Shown one piece after another: positions 6,217 to 6,491 of a DNA stretch of 64,000 nucleotides (the stretch's first letter is position 1; each line of letters begins with the position of its first letter). The DNA is from an uncultured bacterium (lineage in GTDB: Bacteria > Omnitrophota > Omnitrophia > Omnitrophales > Aquincolibacteriaceae), in assembly GCA_964410905.1 (NCBI GenBank), contig CAYPIR010000001.1, positions 21,861 through 85,860 on the forward strand, written 5' to 3'. Below the pieces are notes generated by a model. That model saw only the letters and a program-made list of their open reading frames with translations, made no database searches and was not told the origin of the DNA. The translations under genes were made by a program, and so were the position numbers.

Positions 6217-6383
6217 TTCGATATCAAAATCGATGAGAAAATCATCTAGTGTTTTTTGCGTGGATTCTTCGCGGAAAGCAAGATCGATAAGTTTTTGGTC
6301 TTTTTGCGAAACAATTTCTTGATAAAACGCTTCTTCCGCCCAAAAGACTTTGTCTTCTTTTAAAAAACTTAATCGATTAGTAT

Positions 6384-6423
6384 CTTGCTTGCTTGCTTGC
6401 TTGCTTGCTTGCTTGCTTGCTTG
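6384..6423 (-). repeat. Perfect tetranucleotide simple-sequence repeat, (CTTG)10 on the plus strand and (CAAG)10 on the coding strand, in the 5' leader and extended reading frame of the nucleotidyltransferase-kinase-PqqD operon.
   Basis: Counted directly: 40 nt from 6384 to 6423. The tract encodes (KQAS)n in all three minus-strand frames. Confidence 0.95.
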
Positions 6424-6491
6424 TAGACATTCTTAAACTCGCGGTTTTGCATTTTTTAAAAATTAGAAAAATAATTTTCTGTCCATTTTTT

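Follow-up and report, generated by a model that had tools for sequence, protein, structure and literature searches.

A perfect run of ten CAAG units stands in the 5' part of a nucleotidyltransferase gene in a 64,000-nucleotide stretch of DNA (the window) from an uncultured member of the Omnitrophota, a candidate phylum of very small bacteria. The locus raises the question of whether this run is a simple-sequence contingency switch, i.e., a tract in which the gain or loss of repeat units would move the gene in and out of frame with its start codons, and, if so, which phase was sequenced. The arrangement described below makes a contingency switch at the 5' end of the gene the likely answer, and the nucleotidyltransferase is probably a phase-variable gene that was sequenced in its OFF phase. 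The features around the tract are as follows.

6450–6452, minus strand: distal ATG (ATG6452), in the enzyme frame at 8, 11 or 14 units; A/T-rich upstream, with no Shine-Dalgarno motif
6433–6435, minus strand: in-frame TAA that closes the enzyme frame upstream (by translation)
6428–6430, minus strand: proximal ATG (ATG6430), in the enzyme frame at 6, 9 or 12 units; only a weak GAG upstream
6384–6423, minus strand: perfect (CAAG)10 tract, equivalent to 5'-GCAA repeats; encodes (KQAS)n, with no stop codon in any sense frame
6369–6379, minus strand: stops of both wrong frames after the tract, TAA at 6377–6379 (for ATG6430) and TAA at 6369–6371 (for ATG6452)
5212–6383, minus strand: nucleotidyltransferase coding sequence after the tract (PF14907, NTP_transf_5), intact; 389 codons and a stop
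6214–6216, minus strand: TTG (TTG6216), internal to the conserved protein but taken as the start in the public 334-aa annotation (P0001)

Repeat tract and reading frames

The first-pass annotation had reported a perfect (CTTG)10 tract at 6384–6423, and TRF agrees, finding a single perfect array there with period 4, 10.0 copies and 100% matches. The unit is CTTG on the plus strand and CAAG on the coding (minus) strand, and each sense frame reads the repeat as a permutation of K-Q-A-S. When the window was shuffled 100 times with dinucleotides preserved, the expected number of matches to a 16-nt (CTTG)4 probe was 0. Tetranucleotide contingency tracts are expected to be uninterrupted, well above chance length and at least about 5 units long, and the CAAG tract, with its 10.0 perfect copies, is of that length. 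It is the sole tetranucleotide simple-sequence repeat (SSR) with at least 4 units in the window; since the 64 kb reveals only one such SSR, the finding speaks for a single locus and not for a genome-wide "phasome."

Read on the minus strand, the 72 codons of the nucleotidyltransferase frame between the stop at 6433–6435 and TTG6216, repeat included, are all open, and none of them is an ATG, GTG, TTG or CTG. Translation thus bears out the earlier description of a frame open for 72 codons upstream of the TTG without ATG, GTG or TTG. With the enzyme frame shut upstream by the TAA, no start codon is in frame in the 10-unit allele. In this allele ATG6452 gives a product of 27 aa, MQNREFKNVYKQASKQASKQASKILID, for which 28 aa had been claimed, and ATG6430 gives one of 17 aa, MSTSKQASKQASKQARY, as first described. 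Each wrong frame meets its TAA no more than 5 codons past the tract.

The dependence of these frames on repeat number was simulated for 6 to 14 CAAG units. ATG6452 is fused to the enzyme at 8, 11 and 14 units, with products of 410, 414 and 418 aa, and ATG6430 at 6, 9 and 12 units, with products of 400, 404 and 408 aa; alleles of 7, 10 and 13 units are OFF. The result is a clean ON, ON, OFF cycle with a period of 3, as expected from the earlier claims that gaining one unit or losing two fuses ATG6452, that losing one or gaining two fuses ATG6430, and that the present allele is out of frame for both. The unit length is not a multiple of three, and the tract lies within an open reading frame, 3' of the ATGs. 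A one-unit change restores an ATG-initiated, full-length enzyme, which is the classical layout of a contingency locus that had been proposed. Neither ATG has a good Shine-Dalgarno motif, a feature found in about half of the genes in the window, and a consensus scan between the ETF gene and the ATGs found no promoter-like or terminator-like site.

A three-state switch can be proposed from this layout. As in known tracts, slipped-strand mispairing during replication would add or remove CAAG units, and with the two ATGs occupying both frames other than the enzyme's present one, three states would result. When the number of units (n) is 0 mod 3, ATG6430 would initiate the enzyme; the N-terminal length from this codon is nearest to that of the homologues. 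When n is 2 mod 3, initiation would be at ATG6452, which would lengthen the N-terminus by 10 residues and probably change how efficiently the gene is translated. When n is 1 mod 3, as in the sequenced 10-unit allele, the gene would be OFF and only the 17- or 27-aa peptides would be made. Changes in repeat length should be tolerated, since the hydrophilic (KQAS)n stretch belongs to an N-terminal tail that is disordered. The enzyme would be absent in the OFF state, and expression of the overlapping kinase and PqqD genes would probably be lowered by loss of coupling or by polarity. The outcome would be the stochastic, reversible presence or absence of the product of the whole cassette.

The count of ten units comes from a metagenome-assembled contig of 153,953 bp, and it may be asked whether it is a consensus or assembly miscount, with 9 or 11 units and the gene ON in most cells and 10 being the assembler's choice. 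Assemblers collapse heterogeneous repeats, and assemblies at k=31 fail to resolve this tract. The tract and both flanks are present in the independent Logan assemblies of SRR11845623, SRR11845624 and SRR11845625, so the tract is not an artefact of one assembly; owing to the k=31 limit, the contigs from all three runs begin or stop inside it, each with at least about 7–8 units. However, ordinary short reads and large-k assemblers easily span a 40-nt tract, and a miscount appears unlikely. Mixed tract lengths in the population would themselves be evidence of phase variation, so a miscount would alter the current state assigned to the gene and not the mechanism. JGI metagenome contigs were also scanned for (CAAG)3 joined to the downstream flank; there were 0 matches, and hence no other allele.

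The 5' coding region and the public start codon

The first-pass annotation had placed the tract in an operon leader; alignment of homologues instead puts it in the true 5' coding region of the gene. The 9-unit ON form (404 aa) was searched against 5.8 billion proteins, giving 123 matches, 120 of them listed. The sole identical match among the 120 listed is the public 334-aa protein P0001, which starts at TTG6216 and covers 83% of the query. The remaining 119 are at most 51% identical to it; the listed homologues are mostly about 380–400 aa long and cover 88–92% of the ON form. Homologues of 380–398 aa align over the 55 codons upstream of TTG6216, and positions 6217–6383 are accordingly conserved N-terminal coding sequence. 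In an alignment of 24 sequences, the segment DTNRLSFLKEDKVFWAEEAFYQEIVSQKDQKLIDLAFREESTQKTLDDFLIDFDIE aligns end to end, the near-invariant residues E37, L46, Q57, L60, D68 and E70 precede TTG6216, and the N-termini of the homologues coincide with the position of the tract. An F-Y-x-E motif lies 22–34 residues from the N-terminus in most homologues and 33 residues from ATG6430 at 9 units. A lack of conservation in the upstream open frame had been named beforehand as a finding that would refute the switch, and the frame proved to be conserved, in its 55 aligned codons and in its near-invariant residues.

As judged from these alignments, the tract lies within the first ~20 codons of the real nucleotidyltransferase gene. 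The TTG6216 start is an annotation artefact of a frameshifted gene, since homologues align across the 55 codons upstream of it, and the public 334-aa protein (5212–6216) is a call that was truncated because the repeat shifts the frame. The lesson for annotation is that a database protein of this kind can be the truncated form of a frameshifted and probably phase-variable gene.

A structural model is in keeping with this placement of the N-terminus. AlphaFold2, run on the 24-sequence alignment, gave a model with a mean pLDDT of 83 and a pTM of 0.81, in which residues 1–27, comprising the start and the repeat peptide, are disordered and helices are formed by residues 29–38, 41–51 and 57–66 at pLDDT 81–86. 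The modelled fold is of the Pol-beta type; the best PDB matches, MenT1, ANT(2'')-Ia and LnuA, are distant. Neither the kinase nor the nucleotidyltransferase profile had an informative match in sequence searches of the PDB.

The same data bear on the suggestion that the 10-unit allele is functional as sequenced, either from TTG6216 or a rare ATT or ATC start, with the repeat forming a small-ORF leader, or by ribosomal frameshifting on the tract. The public annotation does start P0001 at TTG6216, and in-frame ATT or ATC codons are found at 6315, 6288, 6234 and 6222. However, TTG6216 is residue 71 of the 404-aa form, lacks a Shine-Dalgarno motif, and lies inside conserved sequence, directly after the near-invariant D-I-E motif. 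From such a start the product would lack the three confidently modelled helices (residues 29–66) and six near-invariant residues, together with the first ~11 positions of the Pfam domain. A frameshift-stimulating element is not evident either, and it would be very surprising if the 10-unit allele were functional by any of these routes.

The gene beyond the tract has not decayed, since its 389 codons are open and keep all 29 columns that are invariant among the 24 sequences; the nucleotidyltransferase scores 92.3 bits against PF14907, for which the gathering threshold is 31.2. No close relative was found in protein or genome collections, the best of the 120 listed homologues being 51% identical, and an N-terminal tetrapeptide repeat occurs in none of these 120 proteins.

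The cassette in the window and in other genomes

The nucleotidyltransferase gene heads a cassette that continues on the minus strand toward the left edge of the window.

4133–5221, minus strand: HprK-like P-loop kinase homologue, preceded by a GGGAG motif of its own; 10-nt overlap between its start and the nucleotidyltransferase stop (ATGTTCATAA)
3637–4131, minus strand: PqqD-family (RRE-type) protein of 164 aa, starting 1 nt past the kinase stop; AAGGAG motif upstream
2338–3531, minus strand: AAA_14/DUF4143 ATPase, between the PqqD and GT2 genes; found in none of 60 related loci
593–2266, minus strand: GT2 glycosyltransferase, the partner that related loci also have downstream of the triad
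1–600, minus strand: second GT2 glycosyltransferase with a GTG start at 598–600, continuing beyond the left window edge

The PqqD assignment is given by PF05402, which matches residues 21–84 with 28.5 bits against a gathering threshold of 23.4. The Pfam match of the kinase is weak (E = 2e-4) and under the cut-off, and NCBIfam cut-offs are likewise not reached. The switch had been proposed to govern the kinase and RRE genes through coupling. The 10-nt overlap and the 1-nt gap that follows favour that claim, and the presence of a Shine-Dalgarno motif before each of the two genes counts against it. An effect of the switch on the kinase and PqqD is plausible, but because both carry their own ribosome-binding sites, the switch may control the first gene only.

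Genes for ETF alpha, ETF beta, an ETF-QO-like protein and an acyl-CoA dehydrogenase lie upstream of the cassette. The GC content of the cassette genes (36–44%) is lower than that of the neighbouring ETF genes (45–49%), which suggests that the cassette was horizontally acquired. The AAA_14 ATPase gene, in turn, looks like a lineage-specific insertion into the cassette.

Two further sequence features were seen in the cassette. A large imperfect palindrome at 3545–3619, with 35-nt arms that are 80% complementary and 5 nt between them, occupies most of the 105-nt gap between the PqqD and AAA_14 genes and overlaps a promoter-like stretch containing TTGACA; an operator, a hairpin and a scar left when the ATPase gene was inserted are possible explanations. 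At 2268–2283 the plus strand has C8 followed by T8, which on the minus strand reads as A8 G8, stops 1 nt short of the GT2 gene's ATG (2266) and makes up the Shine-Dalgarno region of that gene. The C8 is the sole G/C run of at least 7 in the window, where a rough estimate gives ~0.5 by chance per 64 kb, and the stretch could be a second slippage-prone tract, one that alters ribosome-binding-site spacing.

The low GC content and the inserted ATPase gene also have a place in another account of the tract, namely that the nucleotidyltransferase is a recently dead pseudogene in which a chance expansion of the repeat left an effectively permanent frameshift with no adaptive switching. The cassette as a low-GC import, with 36–40% against 48% in the neighbouring genes, may be dispensable, an unrelated gene has been inserted into the cassette, the sequenced allele has no in-frame start, and both ATGs have poor Shine-Dalgarno sequences. 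However, 389 codons remain open at 38% GC with all residues that are invariant in the family, and the uninterrupted, perfect tract argues for active slipping rather than decay. The two ATGs lie exactly in both other frames, and the wrong frames are stopped at once. In studied systems tetranucleotide tracts of 10 units are also intrinsically hypermutable (PMC2651432). A dead gene is therefore given a low probability. No rival accommodates the perfect tract, the two ATGs in complementary frames, the immediate stops in the wrong frames and the undecayed gene as well as a contingency switch does.

Outside the cassette, the window carries genes of a diderm bacterium with housekeeping functions (DnaE, LigA, DnaG, RpoD, GuaA and LpxD), TolC-type, HlyD and MacB efflux genes, and genes of the futalosine pathway. 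The best named relatives of DnaE, 59–70% identical, are without exception MAGs of Candidatus Omnitrophota/Omnitrophica, and this one marker points to an Omnitrophota host; GuaA, with 79% identity to Clostridia, was uninformative. It also includes two restriction-modification regions. The first, at 12730–14630, encodes an R.Pab1-type endonuclease and an adjoining 387-aa ORF with no Pfam match; the second, at 46699–49369, is a DpnII-type cassette with a D12-class adenine methylase, a DpnII endonuclease and a second, N6_N4 methylase. A bacterial type A RNase P RNA (183 bits) with an adjoining tRNA is found at 33135–33632 and a second tRNA at 26875–26948. Near the right end, a 204-aa protein (62830–63444) has a lysine-rich N-terminal repeat (KKAVKKAVKKAIKKVAKK...), encoded in frame by the 12-, 24- and 36-nt tandem repeats that TRF reports at 63351–63438. 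With a period divisible by three, these repeats are not a frameshift switch.

In species-representative genomes a scan found 60 related loci, all from other phyla: in metagenome-assembled genomes (MAGs) of gut and rumen Alphaproteobacteria, in Gastranaerophilales/Melainabacteria, in Mailhella/Desulfovibrionaceae and in Bacteroidales. In almost all of them the nucleotidyltransferase, kinase and PqqD genes come in this order and are followed by one or several GT2 genes; L028, L053 and L057 are among the exceptions, as are contigs on which the full set does not fit. The GT2 gene typically follows directly after PqqD or within ~1 kb, and some loci have a divergent second PqqD-like ORF before PqqD. 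On one long contig the operon runs from the triad through GT2, GT2, GT8, an MptE-like gene, GT8 and GT2 to an ABC exporter, and on a second the triad is joined by four glycosyltransferase genes. Wzx/Wzy-type genes were not found. A tetranucleotide SSR at the 5' end of the nucleotidyltransferase gene was found at none of the 60 loci.

Two other repeats were recorded at these loci. In a Mailhella MAG (L012), a T15 run at 9857–9871 lies between a terminator-like hairpin and a TTGACA (-35-like) hexamer, just upstream of the GTG of the nucleotidyltransferase homologue, and is suggestive only. In a Melainabacteria locus (L057), (ACAG)4 and (CAGA)8 repeats at 7614–7686 lie close to where an open frame of more than 220 codons ends, at a distance of ~2.3 kb upstream from the nucleotidyltransferase homologue.

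The cassette had been called RiPP-like, a label that its gene content does not establish. A lasso cyclase (asparagine-synthetase-like C protein) and a transglutaminase-like B2 protease are absent from the genes of the window and from the related operons, and no conserved precursor-peptide ORF occurs around the triad in the gaps of the 60 loci. Clusters of small ORFs were considered as precursor peptides and rejected, as they are out-of-frame readings of neighbouring GT2 genes. The conserved partners of the triad are glycosyltransferases of the GT2 and GT8 families, joined in relatives by an ABC exporter. Among curated systems, Haft's HprK-related kinase A/B and SynChlorMet cassettes (TIGR04352, TIGR04355, TIGR04249 and TIGR04248) come nearest, and the NCBIfam scores are far under the cut-offs: 31 bits against 200 for the kinase and, for PqqD, 27 against 100 (ScmD) and 15 against 35 (TIGR04353).

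By type of protein, the triad does resemble the tailoring set of the lasso peptides paeninodin and pseudomycoidin, in which an HprK-type kinase, a nucleotidyltransferase and a PqqD-like B1 protein likewise co-occur. In the case of pseudomycoidin, the kinase phosphorylates the C-terminal Ser and the nucleotidyltransferase puts hexoses on the phosphate (PMC8498205). Lasso-peptide clusters differ in having a cyclase, a B2 protease and a precursor, none of which is found in the window or in the 60 related loci. Given this analogy, phospho-glycosylation extended by the GT2 and GT8 enzymes is a reasonable guess, and the product of the cassette is most likely, if speculatively, a phospho-glycosylated peptide, protein or envelope glycoconjugate.

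A literature search for phase variation in Omnitrophota found nothing, nor did one for the accessions of the sequencing runs. A broader reading of the locus is tentative and, taken as a whole, rather doubtful. It may be the first contingency locus from the phylum, a three-state switch (strong-ON, weak-ON and OFF) that independently evolved a Haemophilus-like GCAA/CAAG unit and a dual-ATG arrangement. Such a switch might gate a horizontally spread nucleotidyltransferase–kinase–PqqD–glycosyltransferase pathway, for a phospho-glycosylated peptide or envelope glycoconjugate, under fluctuating selection from, e.g., phage or a host or partner cell. If mixed repeat lengths were seen in reads, classical tetranucleotide contingency switching would be known from an uncultured candidate phylum as well as from host-adapted Proteobacteria. 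The widespread, unstudied cassette would then also have a product under fluctuating selection, and would most likely be exposed or secreted.

Relation to known phase-variable systems

The G/C tracts of Campylobacter and Helicobacter offer one comparison, as there, too, a gene for surface modification has a slippage-prone tract at its 5' end. Runs of this kind, 10–12 nt long, recur in or beside glycan genes at the Gastranaerophilales loci.

L024: 4154–4163
L050: 19450–19459 and 15050–15059
L059: 11961–11970 and 15079–15089
L039: 14659–14670
L049: 9897–9906

The run in L024 splits a cytidylyltransferase-like ORF (..ADLLHPGHLNIISEARK..) over two frames, an apparent OFF state, and in L050 a GT2 gene has a C10 run directly behind its ATG and in frame, apparently the ON state. 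A G10 run in L049, ~50 nt upstream of the start of the nucleotidyltransferase homologue, is suggestive only. By a rough estimate, ~0.05 runs of this length would be expected by chance in ~1 Mb at that composition, and the Gastranaerophilales runs are likely to be homopolymer contingency tracts. With such runs in their glycan genes, the loci seem prone to SSR switching in several lineages, through different tracts and in different genes. Unlike the CAAG tract, these tracts are mononucleotide and occur in other genes of the related loci, never inside the nucleotidyltransferase gene.

The paired start codons have their counterpart in lic2A and lic1A of Haemophilus influenzae, where CAAT repeats are combined with several initiation codons in different frames, like the dual-frame ATGs described here. 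A 2007 study by Dixon et al. in J Bacteriol (189:511), cited in PMC6479036, is said to have found that the multiple ATGs of lic2A, in different frames, lead to expression in two of the three frames, possibly at differing levels. Both genes differ from the Omnitrophota locus in their repeat unit and in the organism.

The repeat unit itself is shared with other genes of H. influenzae, in which CAAG/5'-GCAA repeats drive phase variation of lex2A (14–31 units), oafA (5–14 units) and lav (PMC2651432, PMC6479036). The unit is identical to that of the Omnitrophota tract, and ON and OFF follow the number of units modulo 3. In lex2A and lav the tract also lies in the 5' part of the ORF, as in the Omnitrophota gene. 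The GCAA tracts of H. influenzae, like the tract described here, encode a hydrophilic, positively charged tetrapeptide repeat, and the unit counts are in the same range. The two settings differ in the organism: H. influenzae is a member of the Pasteurellaceae and a pathogen in which switching has been observed, whereas the present locus comes from an uncultured, Omnitrophota-like bacterium. They differ also in what is controlled, an LPS glycosyl- or acetyltransferase in H. influenzae and here a PF14907 nucleotidyltransferase that heads a kinase–PqqD–GT2 cassette. Tetranucleotide phase variation is thus a known principle, and what is new is its unusual host and the uncharacterised, widely transferred cassette to which it would be applied.
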